From contig DATIYL010000013.1 of assembly GCA_035517635.1 (NCBI GenBank), positions 10,224-74,223 on the forward strand: DNA of 64,000 bases, written 5' to 3'. The number at the start of each line of letters is the position of its first letter. Position 1 is the first letter of the stretch. Positions 9,208 through 36,099 of the stretch are shown here, piece after piece. The position numbers and the translations under genes were made by a program. Source of the DNA: Stellaceae bacterium (GTDB lineage: Bacteria > Pseudomonadota > Alphaproteobacteria > ATCC43930 > CGMCC-115725). The notes under the pieces are model-generated. The model worked only from the letters and a program-made list of their open reading frames with translations, ran no database searches and had not been told where the DNA came from.

Positions 9208-10575
9208 ATGCTGCAGAAACTACGCGTAGAGGCCGAAGTCGCGAATGCCTATAGAGACCACGTCAACCCGCAATGGGTGAAGTTTCTCGACACTCTGCAA
9301 ATGAACGTCGCCTACCTCCGATGCACGGGCGCGGAGCTTCACACAACGGACGGCCGGGTGATCCTGGACTTCATCTCGGGCTACTGTGTCCACAATATCG
9401 GTCACAACCACCCTCGCCTGGTGGCCGCGCTCAAGGCAGAGCTGGACCGCGCGGGCCCCGCCATGCTGCAAAGCCATGTCTCGGATTTGGCGGGAGAGCT
9501 TGCCCAGAAGCTGTGTCGGCGCAGCGGCGGCCGGCTGGCGAAAGCTTTCTTCGCGAGTTCAGGCAGTGAGGGCGTCGAAACCGTCATCAAGTTCGCGCGC
9601 GCGCATACCGGACGAAGCGGCATCGTTTATGCGGCAGGAGGCTTCCACGGCCTCACCTGCGGCGCGCTCTCGCTGATGTCGAACGGGTTCTGGACCGAAC
9701 GGTTCGGGCCCTTCCTGCCGGAGACGTCTTCCGTTCCCTTCGGCGATGTCGACGCCTTGGAGCGCAAGCTGGCGACCCGGGCCATTGCCGCCTTTGTACT
9801 CGAGCCGATTCAGGCCGAGAGCGGCGTGCTTCTCGCGCCATCGACGTATCTGCGCGAGGCTCAGGCGCTCTGCCGGCGCTACGGGACGCTTTTCGTTCTC
9901 GACGAGGTGCAGACCGGCCTATATCGAACCGGCCCCTTCCTGGCCGCGCACCATTTCGGCGTCGAGCCCGACATGGTGATACTCGCCAAGGCGCTCAGCG
10001 GCGGTCTTGTTCCCTGCAGCGCCGTGCTGATGTCGGATCCGATCTACCACTCGGTCTACAGCTCGTTGCGGCGTGCCGTCATCCACACATCGACCTACAG
10101 CGAAAACAGCCTGGCGATGCGCGCCGGTCTCGCCACGCTCGACATCCTGGAAGATGAAGGGCTCGGACCGCGCGCGGCGAAAGCGGGCGAGGCTCTCCGC
10201 GCTGCGCTCACCGATCGCCTCGCCAAATATGAAATGGTCGGGGATGTTCGCGGCCTCGGGCTCCTCAACGCCATCGAGTTCAGAGCGCCGCGCTCGCCAT
10301 CCCTGCAGATCCCGTTCCTGGCGTTTGCTCACATCCACCCGGCATTGTTCGGGCAGATGCTGGTCAGGCGACTGTTCAGGGATCATGGCATCCTGAGCCA
10401 GATCTGCGGCAACAACTTCATGGCGCTGAAAGTTGCGCCGCCTCTCATCATCCATGACGCGCAGCTCGAGCGCTATGTGAGCGCCGTCGAGCAGCTCGTC
10501 CATTCATTGCACACGTCAAAGGCGTTTTGGTCCGATGCGCTCGGCATTGGGCGGCGAGCCCTGGCGTCGATCTGA
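9208..10575 (+). CDS. Class-III PLP-dependent aminotransferase
   Basis: SGSEGVETVIKFAR, DEVQTGLYRTG, PLP-lysine context ILAKALSGG. Start set at Met 9208 (MLQKLRVEAE). Confidence 0.85.
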   Translation: MLQKLRVEAEVANAYRDHVNPQWVKFLDTLQMNVAYLRCTGAELHTTDGRVILDFISGYCVHNIGHNHPRLVAALKAELDRAGPAMLQSHVSDLAGELAQKLCRRSGGRLAKAFFASSGSEGVETVIKFARAHTGRSGIVYAAGGFHGLTCGALSLMSNGFWTERFGPFLPETSSVPFGDVDALERKLATRAIAAFVLEPIQAESGVLLAPSTYLREAQALCRRYGTLFVLDEVQTGLYRTGPFLAAHHFGVEPDMVILAKALSGGLVPCSAVLMSDPIYHSVYSSLRRAVIHTSTYSENSLAMRAGLATLDILEDEGLGPRAAKAGEALRAALTDRLAKYEMVGDVRGLGLLNAIEFRAPRSPSLQIPFLAFAHIHPALFGQMLVRRLFRDHGILSQICGNNFMALKVAPPLIIHDAQLERYVSAVEQLVHSLHTSKAFWSDALGIGRRALASI

Positions 10576-10607
10576 ATCGATCCGATTTTCTGAAAGGAAT
10601 TTCAGCC

Positions 10608-11735
10608 ATGGATTCTTCTGGCTTGCTCGCTGTCGAGCCGATGCAACGCATGCGGATTGCCGGCATCGCGAGCGCCCTGCCGAAGCACCGTTACGGTCAG
10701 CACGCCATCACCGAAGCGCTGAAGGGGCTTTGGCGCAACAGGCTGGAAAATCCCGAACTGCTCGACCGTCTCCATAGCCGCACCGGCGTCGATTCGCGCC
10801 ATCTGGCGTTTCCGCTGCAACGCTATGCAGAGTTCTCCTCGTGGGGAGAAACGAATGCCGCCTGGCTGGAAGTCGCCGGAGAGCTCGGTGTCGCGGCGAT
10901 CGACGGTGCGCTGCGCAATGCCGGGATGCAACGCCATGATCTGGACGCGCTCTTCGTCGTCTCGATCACGGGCATCGCCAGCCCGTCGCTTGACGCGCGC
11001 CTCATCAATCGCCTCGGTCTGCGCCCGGACATAAAGCGCACGCCCATCTTCGGCGTCGGCTGCGCCGGTGGTGCGATCGGCCTCTCCCGCGCCGCCGACT
11101 ATGCGCGCGGTTACCCTCGTCATTGCGCCGCGATTCTCGCCGTCGAGGCCTGCTCGCTGACATTGCAGCGAGACGATCTATCGACTGCGAACCTGATTTC
11201 GACCGGGCTCTTCGGCGACGGCGCCGCCGCCGTTATCGTTGCCGGCGAGCAGAGAGCGGGTGACCTCGTGTCCGAAGAGCAACATCCGTCTGCCCATTCA
11301 AGGCCGAGGATATTGGGATCCGGCTCGGTCTTCTATCCCGACTCAGAAGACGTCATGGGTTGGGAAATCTCGCAACAGGGGCTGCGGATCGTGCTGTCGC
11401 CGCGGCTGCCGGACGTCATCGAGGAGAACCTGGCCGGCGATGTGGATGCTTTCCTGGACAGATACGGTCTCTGCCGCGCGGACATCGGAAGCTGGGTGAT
11501 CCATACCGGCGGGCCCAAGGTCTTGCGCGCGATCCAGGACTCCCTTGATCTCCGAGACCGCGATCTCGATCGCTCGTGGGATTGTCTCAGCCGGTTCGGG
11601 AATCTGTCTTCCGCCTCGGTGCTGCTCGTGCTCGAAGACGTCGTCGCGAATCACCCGCCGCCTCCCGGGACGTACGGCCTGCTGCTCGCTATGGGACCCG
11701 GCTTCTGCTCCGAAATGGTGCTGCTGCAATGGTGA
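10608..11735 (+). CDS. Type III polyketide synthase (chalcone/stilbene synthase family)
   Basis: Cys-His-Asn triad contexts FGVGCAGGA, VIHTGGPKVL, RFGNLSSASV. SD GAAAGGAA at 10592-10599 precedes ATG 10608. Confidence 0.85.
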   Translation: MDSSGLLAVEPMQRMRIAGIASALPKHRYGQHAITEALKGLWRNRLENPELLDRLHSRTGVDSRHLAFPLQRYAEFSSWGETNAAWLEVAGELGVAAIDGALRNAGMQRHDLDALFVVSITGIASPSLDARLINRLGLRPDIKRTPIFGVGCAGGAIGLSRAADYARGYPRHCAAILAVEACSLTLQRDDLSTANLISTGLFGDGAAAVIVAGEQRAGDLVSEEQHPSAHSRPRILGSGSVFYPDSEDVMGWEISQQGLRIVLSPRLPDVIEENLAGDVDAFLDRYGLCRADIGSWVIHTGGPKVLRAIQDSLDLRDRDLDRSWDCLSRFGNLSSASVLLVLEDVVANHPPPPGTYGLLLAMGPGFCSEMVLLQW

Positions 11736-12967
11736 GCCTTGGCGGGCCGGTCACGGAAGCGGACGTCCTCGTGATCGGCGGCGGTCCGGCCGGCCTTGCC
11801 GCGGCTCTGGCTGCTCGCGAGCAAGGTCTCAGCGTCGTCCTCGCGGATCGGGGACAGCCGCCGCTCGACAAGGCCTGTGGCGAAGGCTTGTTGCCGGATG
11901 GCGTCGCCGCCTTGCAGGGTGCGGGTGTCGAGCCGAACCCGCGTGAAGCGTTTCCGCTCCGCGGTATCCGCTTTATCGAAGCCGATCTCGCGGCCGAGGC
12001 ATCGTTCCCGGAGGGCCATGGCCTCGGCCTTCGGCGCACGCGCCTGCATCGGTTATTGGCGGAGCGGGCCCATGATGTCGGCGTGAAATTGCACTGGCGC
12101 ACGCAGATCGATGCCGACGATCCTGATCGGATGCGCATCGGCGGCCGCGCCGTTGATTGTCGATGGATCGTCGGTGCGGACGGCGTTCAGTCCCGTATTC
12201 GCCGGGCGATCGGGTTGGCGCCGGCTTGGACCGGCCCTCGCCGGATCGGCGTGCGGCAGCATTTTCGTCTCCGCCCGTGGTCCGATTTCGTCGAGGTGCA
12301 TTGGTGCCGCGGAACCCAAGCCTACGTCACGCCGGTCGGGACGGACGAGGTTTGTATCGCTGTTCTCGGCGGCGGGGCGGCCGCGCGCCTGGCGGATATC
12401 ACGACGATGTTTCCCGCGCTCGCGCGGCGGCTGAGCGGCGCCGAACGAATCGGCCCGATGCGCGGCGCCGTATCGGCCTCTCTCTCGCTGCGCGCCGTCT
12501 CGCGGGGAAAAGTCGCTTTGGTCGGCGATGCGTCGGGCATGGTCGACGCGATCACGGGTGAGGGAGTGTCGTTGGCGCTGCAACAGGCGACCGCTCTGGG
12601 GGTGGCCTTCGGTATCGGCGATCTCACACGCTACGAGGCAGCTCATCGCCGCATGCTCCGAAGGCCACTGCTGATGGCGCGCTTGTTGCTCCTGATGGGC
12701 GCACATGATCGCTTGCGCCACAGCGCCCTGCGCGCGTTGGCGGAGCGGCCGCGCCTGTTCGAGCATTTGCTGGCCGTACATCTGGACCGCCGCAATCCAG
12801 CGGCGCGCCCATTCGAGCTCTGCCGACTTGGGTTGCGCTTGCTCCAAGGAGGCCTGCCCCCGTTAACCGAGGCGCAAGGCGCGGCAGGCTTTGCTCCCGA
12901 GCGGCAAGAGGTGTGGATCGGCTCGAGGGAGCAATACCTCGGTCGATCTGCGGAACGTGACTCGTGA
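11729..12967 (+). CDS. FAD-dependent oxidoreductase (geranylgeranyl-reductase / aromatic hydroxylase-like)
   Basis: DVLVIGGGPAGLAAALAA dinucleotide fold; GDASGMVDAITGEG. ATG 11729 overlaps the PKS stop at 11733-11735. Confidence 0.75.
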   Translation: MVSLGGPVTEADVLVIGGGPAGLAAALAAREQGLSVVLADRGQPPLDKACGEGLLPDGVAALQGAGVEPNPREAFPLRGIRFIEADLAAEASFPEGHGLGLRRTRLHRLLAERAHDVGVKLHWRTQIDADDPDRMRIGGRAVDCRWIVGADGVQSRIRRAIGLAPAWTGPRRIGVRQHFRLRPWSDFVEVHWCRGTQAYVTPVGTDEVCIAVLGGGAAARLADITTMFPALARRLSGAERIGPMRGAVSASLSLRAVSRGKVALVGDASGMVDAITGEGVSLALQQATALGVAFGIGDLTRYEAAHRRMLRRPLLMARLLLLMGAHDRLRHSALRALAERPRLFEHLLAVHLDRRNPAARPFELCRLGLRLLQGGLPPLTEAQGAAGFAPERQEVWIGSREQYLGRSAERDS

Positions 12968-15056: not shown

Positions 15057-16892
15057 TCAGCGATGTGTGGTCGGAACCGCCGCGTGGAGAGCGGGAAGCT
15101 CGAACTCGACGACGAGCCCGTGCGGGTCGTTGTTCCTGGCACGGACGTTGCCGTCATGGAGCTGGACAACGCGCTGGCAGATGGCGAGGCCGATCCCCGT
15201 GCCGCCCGTTTCGCGCGCTCTCGCCTCGTCAACTCGGTAGAAAGGCTCGAAGAGATGCGCCAATGCCGGCTCCGGCACGCCTGGCCCGTGATCGGCCACG
15301 GTTAGGGCGACAAGGCCGGGCGCTTTGTTGGAAAGGCTGATCTCCACTTTGGTGCTTTCTGCCGTATAAAAGATCGCGTTTCTCACCACGTTCTCGATAG
15401 CCCGGCGCAGCAGGTCGGCATCGCCAAGAACGAGCGCGGGCCTCTCGAGACGCAAGACGATGTCGCGCGCGCGATCCGGCTTCTCGAACCGCGCATCGGC
15501 CACGATCTCTTGGACGACGTCCGCGAGGTCGACCGTAGTGAATTCGGACGGTACGGCCGAGCCGTCGAGACGGGCGAGGGTCAGCAGCTCGCTTGCCAAG
15601 GCGGAGATGTTCTGCACCTCTCGCTCGATTCGGTCGAACTGCCGCTGCCGATCGGATTCCGGGGATCGGCGCGCCAGGCCGAGTGCCATGCTGAGCCGCG
15701 CGAGCGGCGACTTGATCTCATGCGAGATATCCCCGATGAAGCGTCGTTGCGCGGTCATCGCAGCTTCGAGTTCCGTGGTTCGGGCGGCGATCTTCGCTTC
15801 GAGCGTCTGGTTGAGCGCAGCGAGCTCGCGGAGAAATTGCTCGCGTTCGCGCGTCGTGCGCTCGAGATTCTCCGTCATGCGGTTGAACGAATGCGCGAGC
15901 GAGCCGAGCTCATCCGATGACGTGATCGGCGCGCGCGCCTCGAGCTTATCGGTATCCGCGATCTCCCGTACCACCCGGGTCAGGTCGGCGATGGGAGCCG
16001 TCAGACGTTGCGAAAGCCAGCGACCCAAAATGACGATCGGCAGGCCGAGAACGGCGCCAAGAAGCGCCAGCTCCAGCGCGACCCAATGCAAGGGGCGGGT
16101 GGCGGCTTTCGAAGCCTGCAGCGTGACAACCTGCCAATTGGCCAATAGGCCGCTACGGGGCAGCGACCGGCCGGCGACGAAGCGGCTGGCCAGGTTGCGG
16201 TCCTGTTTCCGACCAGGATCGAAATCCGTTTGCGACGCCAAATCCGCGGGATTGGCCGCGAGGACCCTCGCGTGTTCCCCTTTCTCCAACAGGAGCGTGC
16301 CGTATTCGAGACCGAACAGCTGATTCTCGACCGACGACCACGGATACGTCATCACCAGCGTGCCGATACGATAGCTTCGGTCGAACGTACCGAAAACGGG
16401 GACCGCCAGCGCGATGATCTGATGTCTCGTTATCGGATCCGTTTCCTTGTCGAAAAAGACGAGATGGGGGCTATCGCTCTTCCACTGCGAGGGAAGTCCA
16501 ATCCGGCTTGCGTCGATCGGATAGGCCCCAGAACTCGCGAGCAGCTTTCCGGCGGCGTCGAACGCATAGATATCGCCGGCCAGGCCGTAGAGGCGCTTCA
16601 GCGCTTCGAGCGTCTCAGCCACCCGCTTGTCGATGTCGCCCGACACCAGGTCATTCATCACGTCGAGTTCCGACCACGCCCTGAGGTCCGTCGCCAGTGC
16701 GCCGATCACATTCACGAGCTGCTCGTATTTCAGGTCCGCGAGCTGATTGAGGGAGGTTGCATCGGATTCGAGCAATGACGCCCGGACCCCGGAATAGACG
16801 ACAATGGCGGTGGCGAAGTAGGTGGCGACATAGATGCTGAGGAGCGCCGCCAGGATCCGCCGTGGAATCGAGCGGGAGATAAAGCCGATCAC
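15057..16892 (-). CDS. Sensor histidine kinase with large periplasmic Cache-like domain and HAMP
   Basis: TM1 ILAALLSIYVATYFATAIVVY, ~250-aa periplasmic region, TM2, HAMP. H-box FIGDISHEIKSPL; HATPase VRNAIFYT, DHGPGVP, GTGIGLAI. GTG start. Confidence 0.85.
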   Translation of the reverse strand: MIGFISRSIPRRILAALLSIYVATYFATAIVVYSGVRASLLESDATSLNQLADLKYEQLVNVIGALATDLRAWSELDVMNDLVSGDIDKRVAETLEALKRLYGLAGDIYAFDAAGKLLASSGAYPIDASRIGLPSQWKSDSPHLVFFDKETDPITRHQIIALAVPVFGTFDRSYRIGTLVMTYPWSSVENQLFGLEYGTLLLEKGEHARVLAANPADLASQTDFDPGRKQDRNLASRFVAGRSLPRSGLLANWQVVTLQASKAATRPLHWVALELALLGAVLGLPIVILGRWLSQRLTAPIADLTRVVREIADTDKLEARAPITSSDELGSLAHSFNRMTENLERTTREREQFLRELAALNQTLEAKIAARTTELEAAMTAQRRFIGDISHEIKSPLARLSMALGLARRSPESDRQRQFDRIEREVQNISALASELLTLARLDGSAVPSEFTTVDLADVVQEIVADARFEKPDRARDIVLRLERPALVLGDADLLRRAIENVVRNAIFYTAESTKVEISLSNKAPGLVALTVADHGPGVPEPALAHLFEPFYRVDEARARETGGTGIGLAICQRVVQLHDGNVRARNNDPHGLVVEFELPALHAAVPTTHR

Positions 16893-16916
16893 CGACGCCG
16901 CCTCCGGGCGCAGCCA

Positions 16917-17345
16917 TCATGGAACATGGGCCAGAACCTTGACGCCCGCCGGCGCAGTGGACGCGCTGATATAGCCAATCGATCCGGGCACGTTCCGGAT
17001 GAAAGCCAGCATGGCTTGCTCGGATTCCTGCACGACTGGCGGCAGCTTGCCCATATAGTGCATCTCGTTCCAATACGCCGCGAGGCTCGCATCATCCGCT
17101 TGCAAGACATCTGCCGTGAACTCGGCCCTCGTCTCGCTGGTCGCGTCGCGATTAACCGGGACAATGTGGCTGCCGTCGGGCCAGGCAGTCACCCGAAGCA
17201 GATAGATCGCGGCGATTTGGCTCAAGGTCAATGGCGCGGGCGAGACGACTGACGGATTGGCGATGATGAGTAGGCCCGCAGCCTTTGCCGAATTTGCAAA
17301 CAGCAGCCCCGCAACGATGGCGATCGCAAGGTGCAGCCGCGTCAT
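16917..17345 (-). CDS. Half-size periplasmic PstS/PBP-like binding protein
   Basis: Signal peptide MTRLHLAIAIVAGLLFANSAKA. Body LTLSQIAAIYL...WPDG...VPVNR resembles lobe 1 of phosphate-type PBPs. Only 142 aa. Confidence 0.55.
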   Translation of the reverse strand: MTRLHLAIAIVAGLLFANSAKAAGLLIIANPSVVSPAPLTLSQIAAIYLLRVTAWPDGSHIVPVNRDATSETRAEFTADVLQADDASLAAYWNEMHYMGKLPPVVQESEQAMLAFIRNVPGSIGYISASTAPAGVKVLAHVP

Positions 17346-17354
17346 CGTCGCGGC

Positions 17355-18371
17355 TCAGAAGAGGACGGCCCAAGAAGCAAAAACTCCCGTGGGATTGACC
17401 GGCGGCCCCCCGAAATTTTGCAGATACTCCACTCTGAAAACCATGGGCGGCTGTGGCCGGTAGGCTACGCCGAACAGCAGATCATCGGCGGGCGACGGGG
17501 AGGATCGGTCCCCGAAGCCCTCGTACCACGAATAAGCGGACCATTTGTCGGTAAAGGCATAGGAGGCGGCGGCGTAGGCGCCCCATTCGGTGTTGTGAAT
17601 GTGAACGGCGGGCGGCCGAGATAGAGCGGAAACGGTTCCTTCCCCCTGCAACGTGACTTTGCCGAGGGTGTAGTGGAAATCGGCACCGAACAGCGACTGA
17701 TCGACCCCCTGCACGTCGCGGGACTGCTGAAACGAGACGCCGACCATGTCGAGCAGACCGATGGGAAAACTGACATGGGCTCCCTCGACCTGCTTGTACT
17801 GATGAAACGTGATCGTGCTCGGCCGCTCGGAAAACTCGCTAGCCGGCTGCCAGTAAACCTGAATGTCCGGGAATTTCGAGAATGGGTCGCTGTAGAGGGC
17901 GGAAACGCCCGTCGCATATTCGCTGAAATTCCGTTCAGTGACGGCCGGTCGCACCGTGGTCAGCACCAGAGGTGCCGCGTGGATTTGGTTCCACTCGCCC
18001 ACGGGCGTCAACATTTTGCCGATGCGAAGGGTGGCCGCGTCGGTCAAATAGGAATCGTTGTAAAGACGTTCCAGGACGAAATCGCCGTCGCCGTGGTCTG
18101 GTCCGGTCGGACCCGAGCGAACGAGGTCGAAGTCGGTGAGCTCCGCTTCGGTAAAGGGGTTGAAGAATCGGCCGAGATGGCCGGTGACGAAGAGGCTCAA
18201 ATCCTCGAGGGCAAGCGACTTCGTCCCGCTGGTCGGCAGGTTTCCGACCAGATTGCTGTAGCCCGCCAGGTTGAAGGGGCCGAGATCGTAGCCGTGTCCG
18301 AGCTGATAGCCGCTGTCGGCGCGAGCGGCCGACTCGGCGAGGCCCCAAGTGAGGCAAAGCAGTACGAGCAA
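17355..18371 (-). CDS. Outer-membrane beta-barrel protein
   Basis: Alternating aromatic/Gly-rich strands; C-terminus ...FASWAVLF (terminal Phe). Track start is TTG. The in-frame upstream sequence ...LRWR would supply the missing positive n-region. Confidence 0.5.
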   Translation of the reverse strand: MLVLLCLTWGLAESAARADSGYQLGHGYDLGPFNLAGYSNLVGNLPTSGTKSLALEDLSLFVTGHLGRFFNPFTEAELTDFDLVRSGPTGPDHGDGDFVLERLYNDSYLTDAATLRIGKMLTPVGEWNQIHAAPLVLTTVRPAVTERNFSEYATGVSALYSDPFSKFPDIQVYWQPASEFSERPSTITFHQYKQVEGAHVSFPIGLLDMVGVSFQQSRDVQGVDQSLFGADFHYTLGKVTLQGEGTVSALSRPPAVHIHNTEWGAYAAASYAFTDKWSAYSWYEGFGDRSSPSPADDLLFGVAYRPQPPMVFRVEYLQNFGGPPVNPTGVFASWAVLF

Positions 18372-18454
18372 CCGCCAACGCAGGAAGAGCGGGTTCCTCT
18401 GATTTGAAATTCGACTCTCTCCCTCGGAGGCGGGGCGCAGCGCGTGAAAGCGGC

Positions 18455-19192
18455 CTATCGATTGCCGGAATGCGCGGGCGAAGGCGCATCTCCGCCGGTC
18501 GAGGTGGCGGGCAGCGCATAGATGTACCCGGCGTTGCGAACCGTCTTGATCCGCTGGTCGAGGTCGCTCGCGGGACCCAGTTTGCGCCGCACTTTGCTGA
18601 CCAAAGTGTCGACATTGCGGTCGGCACCCGCGGTGGAGAGCTGTCTTCCGAAGGCTGCGGCAGAGAGTTCGTCGCGCGGCACGACCCTGCCTGCGTTGCG
18701 CAGGAGATGTTCGAGTAGATTGAATTCTGCGGTCGTGAGCTCGAGCTTTTGGTCGTTCGACCAGGCATTGCGGGATGCGGGATTGAGGCGGATTTCGCCT
18801 ACCGCCACATCGCCGGCCGATGCCGGGCCGGCCATCCCTATGCGCCGCAGCACGGCCCGAATGCGGGCCACCAGCTCCCGCGGATTGACTGGCTTGGCAA
18901 CGTAGTCATCGGCGCCGATCTCCAGGCCGACGATCCTGTCGACATCCTCGCCCCGCGCGGTCAGCATGATGACCGGAACGTTCGATTTCTGCCTGATCTG
19001 CTTCAACACCTCGAATCCCGACAGCGCGGGGAGCATGACGTCGAGAACGACCAGATCGACGCGGTCCAGATCACTGCGCAAACATGACGGGCCATCCGGT
19101 ACCGCCTGCACGGCGAAGCCTTCGAGCTCCAAGAACTCGCGGATCATGTCCGTAAGCTTGACGTCGTCATCCACGAGTAAGATACGCTGCAT
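18455..19192 (-). CDS. OmpR-family response regulator
   Basis: MQRILLVDDD, DLVVLDVMLP, DDYVAKP; winged helix LTTAEFNLLEHL...VRNAGYIY. Start moved to Met 19192. Confidence 0.9.
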   Translation of the reverse strand: MQRILLVDDDVKLTDMIREFLELEGFAVQAVPDGPSCLRSDLDRVDLVVLDVMLPALSGFEVLKQIRQKSNVPVIMLTARGEDVDRIVGLEIGADDYVAKPVNPRELVARIRAVLRRIGMAGPASAGDVAVGEIRLNPASRNAWSNDQKLELTTAEFNLLEHLLRNAGRVVPRDELSAAAFGRQLSTAGADRNVDTLVSKVRRKLGPASDLDQRIKTVRNAGYIYALPATSTGGDAPSPAHSGNR

Positions 19193-19461: not shown

Positions 19462-19998
19462 TCAGACGCCAGACAGCATGCGCAGCATGACGCGGTCTCG
19501 GTAGATGAAGAGATGGATCAGCGCCGCGCTCACATGGATGCCGGCAATGCCAAGCAGTACCCAGATGAACGTGCCGTGCAGCGCACCGATCGAACGACCG
19601 AGGGAGGAGCCTTCCGCGGCGATTCGCGGTATCGCCAAAGCCCCGAAGGCCGTGATTGTCCATCCGCGCATCGACGCGAAGGCCCATCCCGTGAGCGTGG
19701 TCGCGAGGACCAGCGCGTAGAGTAGCCAATGCACCGCCTCCGCACTGACCCGTTGCCAGGCGGGGAGGCTTCCCTCCGGCGCAACAGGGTGCGTGACGCG
19801 CCAGAGAGAACGCAGCAGCGCGACGAACAGGATGAGGAGGCCGAACGACATGTGCAGGTTCATCGCCTCGCCGGGCTTCATGCCGCGTCGGATGTCAGGC
19901 ATGAGCCAGCCGATCGAATATTGCACCGTCAGCAGCAGAACCGTCGCCCAGTGCAGGAGCCGCGCCGTCCGTCCATAGCCCTGGAGAGCCTGTGCCAC
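19462..19998 (-). CDS. Cytochrome b561 family membrane protein
   Basis: TARLLHWATVLLL start, four TM segments with conserved His (HWLLY, HGTFIW, IHVSAALIH). 13 nt downstream of the HiPIP gene. Confidence 0.75.
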   Translation of the reverse strand: MAQALQGYGRTARLLHWATVLLLTVQYSIGWLMPDIRRGMKPGEAMNLHMSFGLLILFVALLRSLWRVTHPVAPEGSLPAWQRVSAEAVHWLLYALVLATTLTGWAFASMRGWTITAFGALAIPRIAAEGSSLGRSIGALHGTFIWVLLGIAGIHVSAALIHLFIYRDRVMLRMLSGV

Positions 19999-20011
19999 GC
20001 CTCGGCTCCGC

Positions 20012-20308
20012 TCAGCTCGACGGCTTCTTCACATAGACCTTGCACCAACCGGTCGGGCTGATCGTTCCGTCGACGACCTTGCATGAAGAAGGCGCATCGA
20101 ACTGGGAGCAATTGTCGCACTGCTGTGCGCCGTGCGGCGTATCCTGATAGCCGACCAGCTTTTGCGCCGCTTTGGCCTCTGCCGGTCGGCTGATCACCGT
20201 GCTGAACACGGCAATGCCGCCCGCGGCGACGGCGGCATTCCCCAACAGGCACCGGCGAGAAAGTCGATTCGACGGGAGTTTCACTTGCTCTTTCACGGTT
20301 TTCTCCAT
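20012..20308 (-). CDS. High-potential iron-sulfur protein (HiPIP), Tat-exported
   Basis: Twin-arginine LSRRCLLG. Four-Cys pattern CDNCSQFDAPSSCKVVDGTISPTGWCKVY. Confidence 0.8.
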   Translation of the reverse strand: MEKTVKEQVKLPSNRLSRRCLLGNAAVAAGGIAVFSTVISRPAEAKAAQKLVGYQDTPHGAQQCDNCSQFDAPSSCKVVDGTISPTGWCKVYVKKPSS

Positions 20309-20418
20309 CTCAAAAAGGACGGCCTGCGTATCGACCGGCGAGCGGTCTCGATACCCGGCGCCGACGCGTGCCGAGAATGACCGCAGCGACTACGATAGTC
20401 GCCGCGGCCGGGTTTGCG

Positions 20419-20432
20419 TTGACCTGGATCAA
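20419..20432. promoter_or_regulatory. FixK/FNR-type box TTGAC-CTGG-ATCAA
   Basis: Perfect match to TTGAY-N4-RTCAA, centred ~117 nt upstream of the HiPIP ATG in the 168-nt gap after the c4 gene. Confidence 0.45.
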
Positions 20433-20476
20433 ACGGTCCTTGGTGACGCGGCAGCGCTTGCCGCGCCGCGAACCCG

Positions 20477-21145
20477 CTACTGTGCCGCCAAATACGTCGC
20501 GACTTGGGTGATCTCGGCAGGGGTCAGGTTCTTCGAGTTCTCGTGCATGATCTCGTTGGCTCGAGACTGCGATGCGAACGCCGCCAATTGCTCCTCGAGA
20601 TAGCTGCGGTGTTGCCCGGCGAGACGCGGAAAGACTGCTTGACCCTCGGCCTTGTCGCCATGACATCCCTTGCACGCCGGAACGTTCCTGTTCGGGATTC
20701 CCTCTTCGTAGATCTTTTGCCCGTCGGCCATGTCCGCCGGATCGCCGGACGAGCCGACCGCCGGCGTCTGCGCGGAATAAAAGGCAGCGAGGCCTTCGAT
20801 CGTCGGGTCGGTGAGCCGCGCCGCCATGCCCCACATGTAAGTGTGGGCATGGGGATCGGCGCGGGAATGGTCGCGAAACGCCTTGAGCTGGGTCTCGAGA
20901 TACTGCGCCTGCTGCCCCGCGAGGTTCGGGAAAGTCGGCGAGACGCTTCTGCCGTCCATGCCGTGACAGGACGAGCAGACATGTTCCGTGTTTACGACCT
21001 CGGCCTGCGCCGGGGGATTGCTCTTCACGGCGCAGGCCGCCATGAACGCGATCGGCGCCAGAATCGCGGCCGAACATGCACCGCGAACGCACCAGCCCGC
21101 GACCGCTTGCCACCGCACGCCACCGCGTGCCGCTCCTTCGATCAT
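20477..21145 (-). CDS. Dihaem cytochrome c4-type protein (possibly lipid-anchored)
   Basis: Two CXXCH motifs (CSSCHG, CKGCHG), each followed by PNLAGQ/PRLAGQ and a distal Met. SD GGAGAGG precedes ATG 21145. FMAAC is lipobox-like. Confidence 0.8.
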   Translation of the reverse strand: MIEGAARGGVRWQAVAGWCVRGACSAAILAPIAFMAACAVKSNPPAQAEVVNTEHVCSSCHGMDGRSVSPTFPNLAGQQAQYLETQLKAFRDHSRADPHAHTYMWGMAARLTDPTIEGLAAFYSAQTPAVGSSGDPADMADGQKIYEEGIPNRNVPACKGCHGDKAEGQAVFPRLAGQHRSYLEEQLAAFASQSRANEIMHENSKNLTPAEITQVATYLAAQ

Positions 21146-21197
21146 TTTCCTCTCCCGCATTTCCGGATGTCCGCGCCCGAGCCGGCGGCCTGCACGG

Positions 21198-22571
21198 TCA
21201 AAACGCCAGCCAGGCGAACAAGAAGAGCGTGTTGTTGTCGCTGGCATTGTGACCGGCGCCGTCGAAATTGTCGGTGCCGCCATTGACCTGCTGATAGTAG
21301 ACGTATTGCAGGCCGAGCTTCAGGTTGAACCACGGCCACAAGGACGGGCCGCCATGGGCGAAGGGCACATAATCCACTTCGCCGATCCACCCATGCGTGT
21401 TCGGCGAGTTGGTCGCCGAGACCGAGCTGAAGAGGAGCGGATCGCCGCTGCCATCGACATGGAAGTAACCGATGGTCGCGCCGTAGGTCTGGTCGCGCCA
21501 GTAGCTCACCTTGCCTTTGAAGCTGTGCAGATTGTTGTGGCTGTTGGTCGAGGCGCCCTGGGCAAAGGAAGAGGAAAGCGACTGGTTCTCGTTGACGTAG
21601 CTCGATTGCAGCGAAAAACTGTCGCGATCACCCAGCCACTGGTACTGCGTGTCGATGCCGACATCGACGGTGTGGTCGGTGCCGAACCCGGTCACCCGCC
21701 CGGGGCTCAGATTCGCGTAAAGGCCGAACGTGCCGACCTCCCACGAGTTTCGCCCCCATTTCGGCTCGACGCCGAGCCGCCAATAGGGGATGACGCCTTT
21801 GGCGGAGCTTGTCCCGGTCGGGTCGATACCGAGGTTGGTCTGCATGTTCCGCGTCAGCGTTCCGTAGCCGCCGGCTTCGAAATAGACCAACCGGTTCCAA
21901 TAGCCGTAAGCGGTCGCCCCGAGGACCTGCTGGGCGAAACCGCCTTCGATCAGAGTTCCCGTCACGGCCGGCCCCACCACCGGCGACAGCGCGGTCGAGA
22001 CGAAGGGGAAGCTCCAGGCCGGCGTCGAGTTCCAAGGGTCGGTGACCGTCGGGTTGTTGTTGAGCGAGACCCCGTACACGACCTCGTCGCCGTAGACGTT
22101 CGCCGACTGGGCGTAGCGGATGTCGGTGTTGTCCCAGTGGATTTTGTTCGGAACGTTGTCATAGGTGCCCTGGATGAAGGCACCGACATGAGGAGCGATG
22201 GCACCGCCGTAGAACAGGCTCGCGGTCTGGACCATGAAATTGTCGTTGGGACCGAAGCCCGGGTTGGCGCCCGGCTGGCCTTGATTGAAATGGGTGTAGG
22301 ACGGGATCACCATAGCCGCCAGCGGCGGCAGATCCGACTGGCCGCTGGTGAAGGTATAGCCGTTCATCTTGAAGAGCCGGCCGTAGGGCGTCAGCTCGGG
22401 AAAACCGTTATGGCACGCGGCGCATTCCTGGCCGGTCTGCCGCGCATAACTGGGTAAGGCGTGCGCTGCCGGCGATCCCAGGAGCAGCGTGACAATCGCA
22501 ATGGTGGAAAAAGAGACAACCGCAGCCGCCGCCGAGGCGATTCGCCCGGTTTTCCCGTGCTCGCGTCCCAT
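21198..22571 (-). CDS. Cyc2-like fused monohaem cytochrome c / outer-membrane porin
   Basis: Signal peptide ...LLLGSPAAHA|LP. Single CXXCH within ALPSYARQTGQECAACHNGFPELTPYGRLFKMNGYTF. Then ~400 aa of Gly/Tyr/Asn/Thr-rich beta-strand-like sequence ending LFAWLAF. Confidence 0.55.
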   Translation of the reverse strand: MGREHGKTGRIASAAAAVVSFSTIAIVTLLLGSPAAHALPSYARQTGQECAACHNGFPELTPYGRLFKMNGYTFTSGQSDLPPLAAMVIPSYTHFNQGQPGANPGFGPNDNFMVQTASLFYGGAIAPHVGAFIQGTYDNVPNKIHWDNTDIRYAQSANVYGDEVVYGVSLNNNPTVTDPWNSTPAWSFPFVSTALSPVVGPAVTGTLIEGGFAQQVLGATAYGYWNRLVYFEAGGYGTLTRNMQTNLGIDPTGTSSAKGVIPYWRLGVEPKWGRNSWEVGTFGLYANLSPGRVTGFGTDHTVDVGIDTQYQWLGDRDSFSLQSSYVNENQSLSSSFAQGASTNSHNNLHSFKGKVSYWRDQTYGATIGYFHVDGSGDPLLFSSVSATNSPNTHGWIGEVDYVPFAHGGPSLWPWFNLKLGLQYVYYQQVNGGTDNFDGAGHNASDNNTLFLFAWLAF

Positions 22572-22846: not shown

Positions 22847-22860
22847 TTGACCTGAGTCAT
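22847..22860. promoter_or_regulatory. Near-consensus FixK/FNR half-palindrome TTGAC-CTGA-GTCAT
   Basis: One mismatch to TTGAY-N4-RTCAA. It lies in the divergent region between the Cyc2-like gene and the P-type ATPase. Confidence 0.25.
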
Positions 22861-22915
22861 GGCGCGACGTTGGCCCGGGCGACAGCCTCACGGAACCGGA
22901 CAGCGCGAGCACGAC

Positions 22916-25462
<2,547 letters not shown>

Positions 25463-34264: not shown

Positions 34265-35482
34265 ATGATGCGGGCGGCGGAACGGAACGAGGACATGGCG
34301 AAGGCGCGCAAGGATAAGACGGCGAAGGCGGTCGGCGGCACACGCGCCCTCGCCGATACCGAGCGGGCCCTCCGCCTCAGCGAAGCGCATCTGCGCTCGG
34401 TGCTGGAGACGGTGCCGGACGCGATCATCGTCATCGACGATCACGGCATCATCGAATCCTTCAGCCCGGCCGCCGAGCGGCTCTTCGGCTACAAGGAAGC
34501 GGCGGTGGCAGGCAAGAACGTCAATGTTCTGATGCCTTCCCCCTATCGCGAACAGCATGACGGCTATCTCGCGCGCTATCTGACGACCGGGGAGCGGCGC
34601 ATCATCGGCATCGGCCGTGTCGTGGTCGGCCAGCGCGCCGACGGCTCGACCTTTCCGATGGAGCTGGCCGTCGGCGAGATCAACCTCGACGACGGGCGCC
34701 GCCTCTTCACCGGCTTCGTGCGCGACATCACCGAGCGTCAGACGACGCGCGAGCGGCTGCACGAGCTGCAGTCGGAGCTGTTGCGCGCGTCGCGCCTCTC
34801 CTCCATGGGGCAGATGGCCTCGGCGCTCGCCCATGAGCTGAACCAGCCGCTCACGGCGGTCATCAATTACGTCCAGGCGTGCCGGCGGCTGCTGGCAAGC
34901 GGCGATGGCGTTGCGCTCGAGCGGCTGCAGGACACGATGGACAAGGCGGTGAGCCAGGCCAACCGCGCCGGCCAGATCATCCACCGCATGCGCCAGTTCA
35001 TCCAGAAGGGCGATACCGACCGACAGGTCGAGAGCATCAACAAGCTGATCGAAGAGGCGAGCGCGCTGGCGCTGGTCGGCGCCAAGGAGAGCGGCATCCT
35101 CGTGCGCCTCGAGCTCAGTCCGGAGCTGCCGCCGGTGCTCGTCGACCGCATTCAGATCCAGCAGGTGCTGGTGAACCTGATCCGCAACAGCGTCGAAGCG
35201 CTCAGCACCGTGCCGCGCCGCGAGCTGACGATCAAGACGTACAAGTCGAACGGAGAGATGGTCGAGGTCGCCGTCGCCGATAGCGGCCCCGGCCTCGACG
35301 AGGCCGTCGCCAAGCAGCTCTTCCAGCCCTTCATCACCACCAAGGCCCGCGGCATGGGGCTCGGCCTGTCGATCAGCCGCTCGATCATCGATGCGCATGG
35401 CGGCAGGCTTTGGGCCGTGCCGGTGCCCCAATCCGGCGTCAGCTTCCAGTTCACGCTTCCTGCCGCCGAGCCCGCCCCATGA
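34265..35482 (+). CDS. fixL: Oxygen-sensing haem-PAS histidine kinase FixL (soluble form)
   Basis: The haem-PAS block [52 protein letters not shown] is near-identical in pattern to rhizobial FixL. H-box [10 protein letters not shown]. No TM segments. Confidence 0.8.
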
Positions 35483-36099
35483 GCGAGGATGCCCGCATCT
35501 TCATTGTCGACGACGACGAGGCGGTTCGCGATTCGCTGGAGCTGCTGCTGCGATCCTCGGGCTTCGAGACGATCGTCGCCTATCCCTCGGCACGCAGCTT
35601 CCTGGCGGAGGCGGTACCGATGCCGGGCGCGTGCCTGCTTCTCGATGTGCGCATGCCGGACATGGACGGGCTCGAGCTGCAGGAAGAGCTCAACCGCCGC
35701 GGCATCAAGCTGCCCGTGATCATGATGACCGGCCATGGCGACGTGCCGATCGCCGTCCGCGCGATGAAGGCCGGGGCGATGGATTTCATCGAGAAGCCTT
35801 TCTCCGACGAGCTGCTGGTCGATTGCGTGCGCCGCGCGCGGCGGCAGGCCGACGAAGCACGGCGCGAAAGCGCCGAGGCCGACGATGTGCGCCGCCGGCT
35901 GGAGATCCTGACGCCGCGCGAGCGCGAGGTACTTCAGGGAATGATTGCCGGCCAGCCGAACAAGCTCATCGCCCATGCGCTCGGCATCAGCCCGCGCACG
36001 GTCGAGATCCACCGCGCCCGCGTCATGGACAAGATGGCGGCACGCAGCCTTTCGGCGCTGGTGCGGATGGCGCTGGCGGCCGGGATCGAGCCGGCCTGA
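35479..36099 (+). CDS. fixJ: Response regulator FixJ (REC + LuxR-type HTH)
   Basis: ATG 35479 overlaps the fixL TGA (ATGA). [34 protein letters not shown]...[19 protein letters not shown]. Confidence 0.85.

Follow-up and report, generated by a model that had tools for sequence, protein, structure and literature searches.

Fused cytochrome-porins of the Cyc2 family are known from several bacterial iron redox systems, and here we compare those systems with a four-gene cluster from an uncultured soil alphaproteobacterium. The cluster lies at positions 19462-22571 of a 64,000-nucleotide stretch of DNA (hereafter the window; Stellaceae bacterium, GenBank assembly GCA_035517635.1, contig DATIYL010000013.1, positions 10,224 to 74,223 of the forward strand). 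The list of open reading frames confirms four same-strand genes, for a Cyc2-like protein, a dihaem cytochrome c4, an iron-sulfur protein of high potential (HiPIP), and a cytochrome b561. A preliminary description, made from the letters alone, had proposed that together they form an Fe(II)-oxidation or electron-uptake chain spanning the whole envelope and ending in b561. Our analysis supports the family assignments and, on balance, favors an iron redox relay of the Cyc2 type in which b561 would be an accessory.

The rus operon of Acidithiobacillus ferrooxidans shares with the window the cyc2-cyc1 gene order, a Cyc2 with 33% identity over its whole length and an equally spaced haem motif, and a dihaem c4 of the Cyc1 kind. 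However, the rus operon contains rusticyanin and an aa3 oxidase (coxBACD) where the window has HiPIP and b561, its host is an acidophilic lithoautotroph rather than an uncultured soil alphaproteobacterium, and the haem motif of the window protein has Tyr in place of Phe. A cluster in a Bradyrhizobium sp. from a pyrite-oxidising enrichment (Percak-Dennett 2017, as summarized by He et al. 2017, PMC5566968) likewise combines an alphaproteobacterial Cyc2 with a HiPIP and with c-type cytochromes of the periplasm, one of them homologous to Cyc1. By contrast with the window, that summary gives it three periplasmic cytochromes and no b561, a comparison made by description only. Degli Esposti et al. 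(2023, PMC10715153) describe, in Acetobacteraceae, alphaproteobacteria of the Rhodospirillales type, a Cyc2 with a Cyc1-like cytochrome c, mono- or dihaem, beside it; they discuss HiPIP as belonging to the same wiring and consider iron redox chemistry running either way. Acetobacteraceae metagenome-assembled genomes (MAGs) are also among the relatives of the window Cyc2, but these hosts are acidophiles and neither a b561 nor a two-component module is described beside their Cyc2 (PMC10715153). Finally, Cyc2PV-1 of Mariprofundus ferrooxydans, an Fe(II) oxidase in vitro (PMC8406198), has the same architecture, motif, 16-strand OprO/OprP-like barrel, and single haem. It belongs to Cluster 1, whereas the window protein resembles the Cluster 2 protein of A. 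ferrooxidans (AfCyc2) over its whole length, as judged by alignment rather than by a tree.

For the b561, the closest described systems are of two kinds. Escherichia coli CybB, a superoxide:ubiquinone oxidoreductase, and Burkholderia LcoA share PF01292 membership with the window protein, and CybB aligns with it over the full length; the two reduce quinone with electrons drawn from radicals in the periplasm. The similarity is distant, however, and the partners in the window are HiPIP and Cyc2-c4 rather than YceI or a lipocalin. The second is “Cytbc” of the Gallionellaceae in culture KS (PMC5566968), in which a b561 and a dihaem c also occur in an Fe(II)-oxidation neighbourhood and which has been proposed as a quinone-active inner-membrane acceptor. 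In Cytbc the two parts are fused and lie downstream of the decahaem-conduit genes mtoAB, whereas the window genes are separate and accompany Cyc2. The genes of the window cluster are, in order along the minus strand:

21198 to 22571, minus strand: Cyc2-family fused monohaem cytochrome-porin, 457 amino acids, with a Sec signal peptide, a ALPSYARQTGQE-CAACH-NGF-PEL haem motif, a predicted 16-strand barrel, and a C-terminal Phe.
20477 to 21145 (raw open reading frame to 21283), minus strand: Cyc1-like dihaem cytochrome c4, 222 amino acids, probable lipoprotein, with two Pfam Cytochrom_C matches.
20012 to 20308, minus strand: HiPIP exported by twin-arginine translocation (Tat), 98 amino acids, with a Pfam HIPIP match, the four-Cys pattern, and an SRR stretch.
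19462 to 19998, minus strand: cytochrome b561 of the CybB/PF01292 type, 178 amino acids, with a Pfam Ni_hydr_CYTB match.

Cyc2 has been defined by a signal peptide, one CXXCH, the motif AXPXFAR[Q/K][T/Y] upstream of it and PXL four residues downstream, a length of at least 365 amino acids, and a 16-strand OprO/OprP-like barrel (Keffer et al. 2021, PMC8406198). We found each of these in the window protein: signal peptide, CXXCH, both motifs, length, and barrel. The ATG of the gene is preceded by GGGGGA, which resembles a ribosome-binding site, and the product begins with the signal peptide MGREHGKTGRIASAAAAVVSFSTIAIVTLLLGSPAAHA, followed by LPSY, in which an AXA site (AHA) can be read by eye after a charged n-region and a hydrophobic core. 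The peptide singled out in the preliminary description, ALPSYARQTGQECAACHNGFPELTPYGRLFKMNGYTF, corresponds to residues 38-74 and holds the only CXXCH of the protein (CAACH, residue 50), and the C-terminus (...FAWLAF) ends in Phe as described. The haem motif reads ALPSYARQT-GQE-CAACH-NGF-PEL, and so the motif style ascribed to Cyc2 in the preliminary description is present, with one conservative F-to-Y change relative to the published consensus. Tyr is the more frequent residue at this position, with 51 Tyr to 16 Phe among 67 relatives with the full motif. The published definition words the place of the upstream motif as 5 amino acids ahead of CXXCH. The three-residue spacer between motif and CXXCH is that of AfCyc2, ALPSFARQTGWSCAACH (ALPSFARQTG-WS-CAACH-TSY-PQL), and the PXL motif four residues past CXXCH is PEL in the window protein and PQL in AfCyc2.

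Alignment and modelling agree with the motif. By BLASTP, residues 24-457 align with residues 17-483 of AfCyc2 (B7JAQ7) at 33% identity (181 bits, E 3e-56), the reference having been machine-read from the PDF supplement of a modelling preprint and thus possibly holding a few errors. An AlphaFold2 model built with 49 homologues, the check suggested for a barrel of about 16 strands, has 16 strands over residues 84-456, with a pLDDT (predicted local distance difference test) of 70.7 and a pTM (predicted template modelling score) of 0.71. A Foldseek search of this model against the PDB returned outer-membrane porins, with OprO (4rjx) second and OprP (2o4v) fourth, at TM scores near 0.5 and E values near 1e-7; OprO and OprP are the templates also used for the models of Cyc2PV-1 and AfCyc2. 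By contrast with this end-to-end resemblance, the protein matched no Pfam or NCBIfam model and nothing in a PDB sequence search, and all named public copies are annotated “hypothetical protein.” A profile of the family recovered 4294 clusters at 50% identity, 733 of them at E<=1e-30, and the family also includes thousands of proteins from soil and peat metagenomes. Among the top 150 representatives, all full-length proteins but one have a single CXXCH; two-thirds of those have a strict P.[FY]ARQT-type motif and the remainder near variants. As far as sequence and predicted fold show, membership of the 457-amino-acid protein in the Cyc2 fused cytochrome-porin family is established.

The c4 gene follows cyc2 after ~52 nucleotides, HiPIP follows c4 after 168, and b561 follows HiPIP after 13. 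The c4 protein contains two CXXCH motifs (CSSCH and CKGCH) and two Pfam Cytochrom_C stretches. Of the proteins with a solved structure, A. ferrooxidans Cyc41/Cyc1 (1H1O) is the one it matches best, at E 4e-43 over residues 55-220, the whole dihaem length; Pseudomonas c4 comes next, at 5e-27. With cyc2 and c4, the window therefore repeats the opening gene pair of the rus operon, as had been supposed. The c4 is probably lipid-anchored, because a lipobox is present in the window protein (FMAAC) and in most of its homologues (L-A-[AG]-C). None of the homologues read has Asp at +2, and the anchored protein would possibly face Cyc2 from the outer membrane.

The HiPIP carries a twin-arginine stretch (SRRCLLG) and, in the mature part, the pattern CxxC-x8-C-x12-C. 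It scored 22.0 bits against Pfam HIPIP, exactly at the cut-off, and its closest solved relative is PioC of the Rhodopseudomonas palustris pio system (6XYV, E 1.5e-13). The preliminary description had likened this gene to Iro. A Tat-exported HiPIP similar to PioC and Iro is indeed encoded, but the NCBIfam Iro model (NF041615) gave 79 bits against a cut-off of 100, so the protein is a HiPIP for which the name Iro is not justified. The remaining family assignments made from the letters, Cyc2-like, c4, and b561, likewise proved right by Pfam matches and by the AfCyc2 alignment.

To place the cluster among its relatives, we scanned the genomes of GTDB species and obtained 79 cyc2 loci. Alpha-type loci, with 50-66% identity, came from Stellaceae, Aliidongia, Rhodospirillales, Acetobacteraceae, Xanthobacteraceae, Pseudolabrys, and unclassified alphaproteobacterial MAGs from soils and bogs. 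For this type, our counts cover 50 loci with at least 1.5 kb of sequence on both sides, and a gene was taken as a neighbour if it lay within 1.5 kb of cyc2. A c4 gene followed cyc2 in all 50, and a HiPIP gene was near it in 29, so the cyc2-c4-HiPIP association goes far beyond chance. A c2-like monohaem cytochrome was found at 11 loci and a cupredoxin at one, where the cupredoxin gene precedes cyc2 in an 80%-identical relative (L001). Altogether, 38 of the 50 have a small carrier (HiPIP, monohaem c, or cupredoxin) adjacent to cyc2. By contrast, none of the 50 has a b561 near cyc2. The best genome matches to the window cyc2 gene reach only 62-66% identity and belong to MAGs of Aliidongia, Stellaceae, Rhodospirillales, and Xanthobacteraceae, a spread over several orders that does not bear out the label “Rhizobiales-like” given to the genome earlier.

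A second, beta/gamma type of locus, with 41-43% identity, came from Zoogloea, Cognatazoarcus, Burkholderiales, and Chromatium MAGs (L063-L082) and includes the cultured Zoogloea sp. LCSB751 (L073 3036-7662) and Cognatazoarcus halotolerans HKLI-1 (L074). Both types are full-length homologues of AfCyc2, with median identities of 32% (alpha) and 30% (beta/gamma). The PXL-like motif of the beta/gamma clade stands six residues past CXXCH, not four.

The flanks of the cyc2-c4 pair are variable and include genes for lactate permease, cytochrome bd, VIT1, and glycosyltransferases, among others. In two otherwise unrelated loci, the gene directly upstream of cyc2 encodes a plain iron/manganese transporter of the VIT1 family (L084 6044-6736, L085 6035-6736), and cytochrome bd genes are near cyc2 in L083 and L085. 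We considered VIT1 and FixLJ as regular neighbours of cyc2 and rejected both, each occurring at only two loci. In L054 (7322-10379), five or six c4-like units stand in tandem after a cyc2-like gene, partly inside one open reading frame of ~700 amino acids, which would be a multi-dihaem c4 array. The MAG CAVWJX01 has three near-identical HiPIP/cyc2/c4 loci on separate contigs (L019, L020, L024), reflecting either multiple copies or assembly duplication.

The b561 itself scored 91.7 bits against Pfam Ni_hydr_CYTB (PF01292; cut-off 30.1). Its best solved relative, E. coli CybB (5OC0, E 2.7e-10), aligned over the full length with the aligned His columns conserved. However, the CybB equivalog model (NF008566) gave only 50 bits against a cut-off of 170, so the window protein is not an orthologue of CybB. 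In a reverse test, we scanned metagenomes for relatives of the window b561 and obtained ~70 loci at 55-64% identity. Two contigs of the same organism aside, no locus among these ~70 had cyc2, c4, or HiPIP near b561. Instead, in 32 of 63 b561-homologue loci, the gene immediately upstream on the same strand encodes a rubrerythrin-VIT1 fusion, an iron exporter of the MbfA type. By sequence comparison, the window b561 thus comes from a common, iron-stress-linked family of alphaproteobacterial b561 proteins, placed beside cyc2-c4-HiPIP only in this lineage. The loci suggest a recurrent pairing of mbfA and b561 in soil bacteria (metagenome loci L088-L147; for example, L132, with the fusion gene at 54-944 and b561 at 1112-1615).

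Energetics also bear on the place of b561 in the chain. Ubiquinone has a potential near +100 mV. The HiPIPs of neutrophiles span +50 to +450 mV, with PioC at +450 mV, and Cyc2PV-1 has a potential of +208 mV (PMC8406198). CybB receives its electrons on the periplasmic side and has its quinone-reducing site on the cytoplasmic side (PMC11869295). Reduction of b561 by c4 or HiPIP would therefore be doubly uphill, given carriers at about +200 to +450 mV and a cytoplasmic-side quinone site that works against the membrane potential, unless the carriers are of unusually low potential. The earlier proposal that b561 is the inner-membrane acceptor of the chain fares poorly in the light of this, of its absence from the 50 alpha-type relatives, and of the different contexts of its nearest homologues. 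Most likely, b561 is an accessory rather than the main terminus, because all 50 close relatives do without it, an iron exporter often accompanies members of its own family, CybB energetics are uphill, and the radicals from Fe(II)/O2 chemistry are of just the sort that proteins of the CybB and LcoA types oxidise. LcoA, a b561 of Burkholderia, is described as detoxifying lipid radicals (PMC9113575).

Taken together, we consider it somewhat more probable than its competitors combined that the cluster is a Cyc2-type iron redox relay with b561 as an accessory. The Fe(II)-oxidation reading of the Cyc2-Cyc1-HiPIP genes is well founded by homology, because of the end-to-end AfCyc2 alignment, the motif, the barrel, the Cyc1-like c4, the PioC/Iro-like HiPIP, and the conserved synteny. 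The characterized homologues AfCyc2, Cyc2PV-1, and Cyt572 are Fe(II) oxidases, and by analogy with them, dissolved Fe2+ would enter the Cyc2 barrel and reduce the haem. The electron would then pass to c4, probably lipid-anchored, and/or to soluble HiPIP, and from these to an acceptor whose gene lies outside the window, be it a cbb3 or aa3 terminal oxidase or something else. At oxic-anoxic interfaces, the relay would more probably give the heterotroph-looking host some extra energy or shield it from Fe(II) than sustain obligate lithoautotrophy. The b561, as a CybB-like dihaem protein, may deliver low-potential periplasmic electrons to quinone, with superoxide or other radicals from Fe(II)/O2 chemistry, and possibly Fe2+, as donors.

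Several observations weigh against this assignment. The haem region of the AlphaFold2 model (residues 33-80) is of low confidence. Keffer et al. regard the function of Cyc2 homologues outside Cluster 1, or in organisms not known to oxidise iron, as uncertain. Moreover, Cyc2 also occurs in Acidiphilium and Acidocella, which reduce Fe(III), and a pair of isoforms, Cyc2B/Cyc1B, has been implicated in Fe(III) reduction (PMC10715153). The window open reading frames that were scanned include no terminal oxidase, bc1, or RuBisCO gene, and scans of the cluster for promoters and terminators gave no signal above shuffle expectation; we therefore make no operon claim. Finally, the beta/gamma loci have the arrangement response regulator, histidine kinase (2CSK_N), b561, cyc2, monohaem cytochrome c, with b561 at 12 of 14 loci and the monohaem c at all 14. 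Their b561 proteins are 27-42% identical to that of the window and, on this comparison, represent a different b561 recruited independently beside Cyc2. Because this clade conserves b561-cyc2-cytochrome c, some functional link between b561 and Cyc2 is plausible, and the conservation may argue that b561 is an integral electron-transfer partner and not just protective.

An inward chain, in which electrons from Fe(II) or a cathode pass through Cyc2 and c4/HiPIP to b561 as the dedicated acceptor and on to the quinone pool, would take that link furthest and would be self-contained. It gains from the co-direction of the four genes and the 13-nucleotide gap between HiPIP and b561, from the independent origin of b561-Cyc2 adjacency in the beta/gamma clade, from the proposal by He et al. 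of a b561-dihaem c fusion as quinone-reducing acceptor in Gallionellaceae, and from the ability of CybB-type proteins to reduce quinone with periplasmic-side electrons. Yet no alphaproteobacterial cyc2-c4 locus among the 50 has b561, the loci of its closest homologues lack the rest of the chain, and the step from c4/HiPIP to b561 is the doubly uphill one, so we consider this chain unlikely.

The same components could work outward, from quinol through b561 and HiPIP/c4 to Cyc2 and an extracellular oxidant such as Fe(III), in dissimilatory or assimilatory reduction or as a redox safety valve that bypasses bc1. Transfer from quinol through b561 to high-potential carriers would be downhill and assisted by the membrane potential, hence thermodynamically easier than the inward direction, and b561 would fill the otherwise missing link to the quinone pool. 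Such a role would also fit the Cyc2/Cyc1 isoforms implicated in Fe(III) reduction by acidithiobacilli and the Cyc2 with adjacent c-cytochrome of Acidiphilium and Acidocella (PMC10715153). However, the three characterized Cyc2 proteins oxidise Fe(II), b561 is missing from all 50 close cyc2-c4 loci, energy would be dissipated rather than conserved, and we found no evidence for CybB-type proteins as physiological quinol oxidases, which makes outward flow rather improbable. Irrespective of direction, it is also doubtful, on our estimate, that b561 is the inner-membrane partner of Cyc2, such that a minimal wire of outer-membrane Cyc2, periplasmic c/HiPIP, and inner-membrane b561 links extracellular iron redox chemistry directly to the quinone pool and was assembled at least twice independently, in the alphaproteobacterial lineage of the window and in the beta/gamma clade.

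The genes around the cluster provide the setting for the accessory-b561 relay that we favor. Those on either side are:

18455 to 19192, minus strand: OmpR-family response regulator, 245 amino acids as called in the identical contig L002, with Pfam Response_reg and Trans_reg_C; the best NCBIfam model is CpxR, under its cut-off.
17355 to 18371, minus strand: porin-like outer-membrane protein, 338 amino acids, with a weak Porin_O_P match (E 8e-5).
16917 to 17345, minus strand: PstS/PBP-like periplasmic protein, 142 amino acids, with PBP_like_2 at E 3e-5, under the cut-off, and a weak TIGR02136 match.
15057 to 16892, minus strand: sensor histidine kinase (dCache-HAMP-HisKA-HATPase, by Pfam); the best NCBIfam models are CpxA, under their cut-offs.
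22859 to 25462, plus strand: P-type cation ATPase, divergent from the cyc2 cluster and given as context only, from its open reading frame and from the Pfam families of an identical gene in L002.

The first four form a sensory module (15057-19192, minus strand) in which the porin-like and PstS-like genes are sandwiched between regulator and kinase, and the regulator gene lies 269 nucleotides downstream of b561. From its adjacency, this two-component module may regulate the cyc2 cluster; among the loci compared, the combination of regulator, porin, periplasmic binding protein, and kinase stands beside no other cyc2. We considered the 338-amino-acid porin-like protein as a haem-less Cyc2 barrel and rejected this, as it has no detectable similarity to the Cyc2 barrel. 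On the other side, a P-type ATPase 61% identical to that of the window also neighbours the cyc2-c4 pair in L009. The G+C content is 0.61-0.64 over ~14-23 kb, which covers the sensory module and the cyc2 cluster, vs. 0.68-0.70 over 23-28 kb, a step that may point to DNA that is mosaic or was acquired.

Chance assembly, with only cyc2-c4 and perhaps HiPIP functional, b561 and the two-component module brought in by rearrangement or horizontal transfer, and a substrate for the clade that may not be iron, could draw on the widely varying flanks of cyc2-c4, the sensory module found beside no other cyc2, the G+C shift, and a clade with no characterized member whose public annotations all read “hypothetical protein,” but we give it little credence, since b561 and a two-component system recur independently beside beta/gamma Cyc2, an iron theme runs across contexts (the b561 family with the iron exporter, VIT1 beside cyc2 in two loci), and the homology to a proven Fe(II) oxidase is full-length.

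Farther from the cluster, the window contains the fixLJ and mntH genes named in the preliminary description, as a FixLJ-like pair at 34265-36099, ~12 kb off, and an Nramp/MntH gene at 62644-63951, ~40 kb off. The genes around the cluster look heterotrophic. Neither in the cluster nor elsewhere among the window open reading frames scanned is there a cupredoxin or oxidase gene, and a complete chain of the rus type is thus not encoded there. The stretch 6774-12967 encodes an AMP-ligase, a thermostable-hemolysin-family protein, a class-III aminotransferase, a type III polyketide synthase, and an FAD monooxygenase. Type III polyketide synthase-like proteins, recognized by eye, recur near the cyc2 loci L019, L020, and L024 and near b561 loci.

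How much of this is new can be judged against the published record. The preliminary description had anticipated a poorly described physiology for the group. However, Cyc2 clusters are known in Bradyrhizobium and Acetobacteraceae, and homologues from Hyphomicrobiales and Rhodospirillales appear in a similarity network of AfCyc2 (PMC10654088). He et al. 2017 also list homologues from Bradyrhizobium and Burkholderia, which decide nothing for the clade of the window protein. Because of these reports, the cluster type is not new, and the window is a further case of it in an uncultured soil alphaproteobacterium. For the adjacency of b561 and Cyc2, we found no description in the literature naming both terms, of which our coverage was partial; the b561 association is the only element that we did not find described.

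Cyc2 is the main genetic marker for inferring microbial Fe(II) oxidation. Although the window protein comes from a very large family without a Pfam domain, whose named members all go by “hypothetical protein,” it is homologous over its full length to the proven A. ferrooxidans oxidase, and the cyc2-cyc1 pair is kept. The locus thereby supports the view of Keffer et al. that a potential for iron oxidation extends widely through the soil Alphaproteobacteria, Stellaceae and their relatives included. The b561 link can be tested through the cultured carriers of the related beta/gamma operon. Should b561 turn out to be a working partner, it would supply Cyc2 pathways with an inner-membrane component that has been missing, or with a defence of their own against the radicals of Fe(II)/O2 chemistry.

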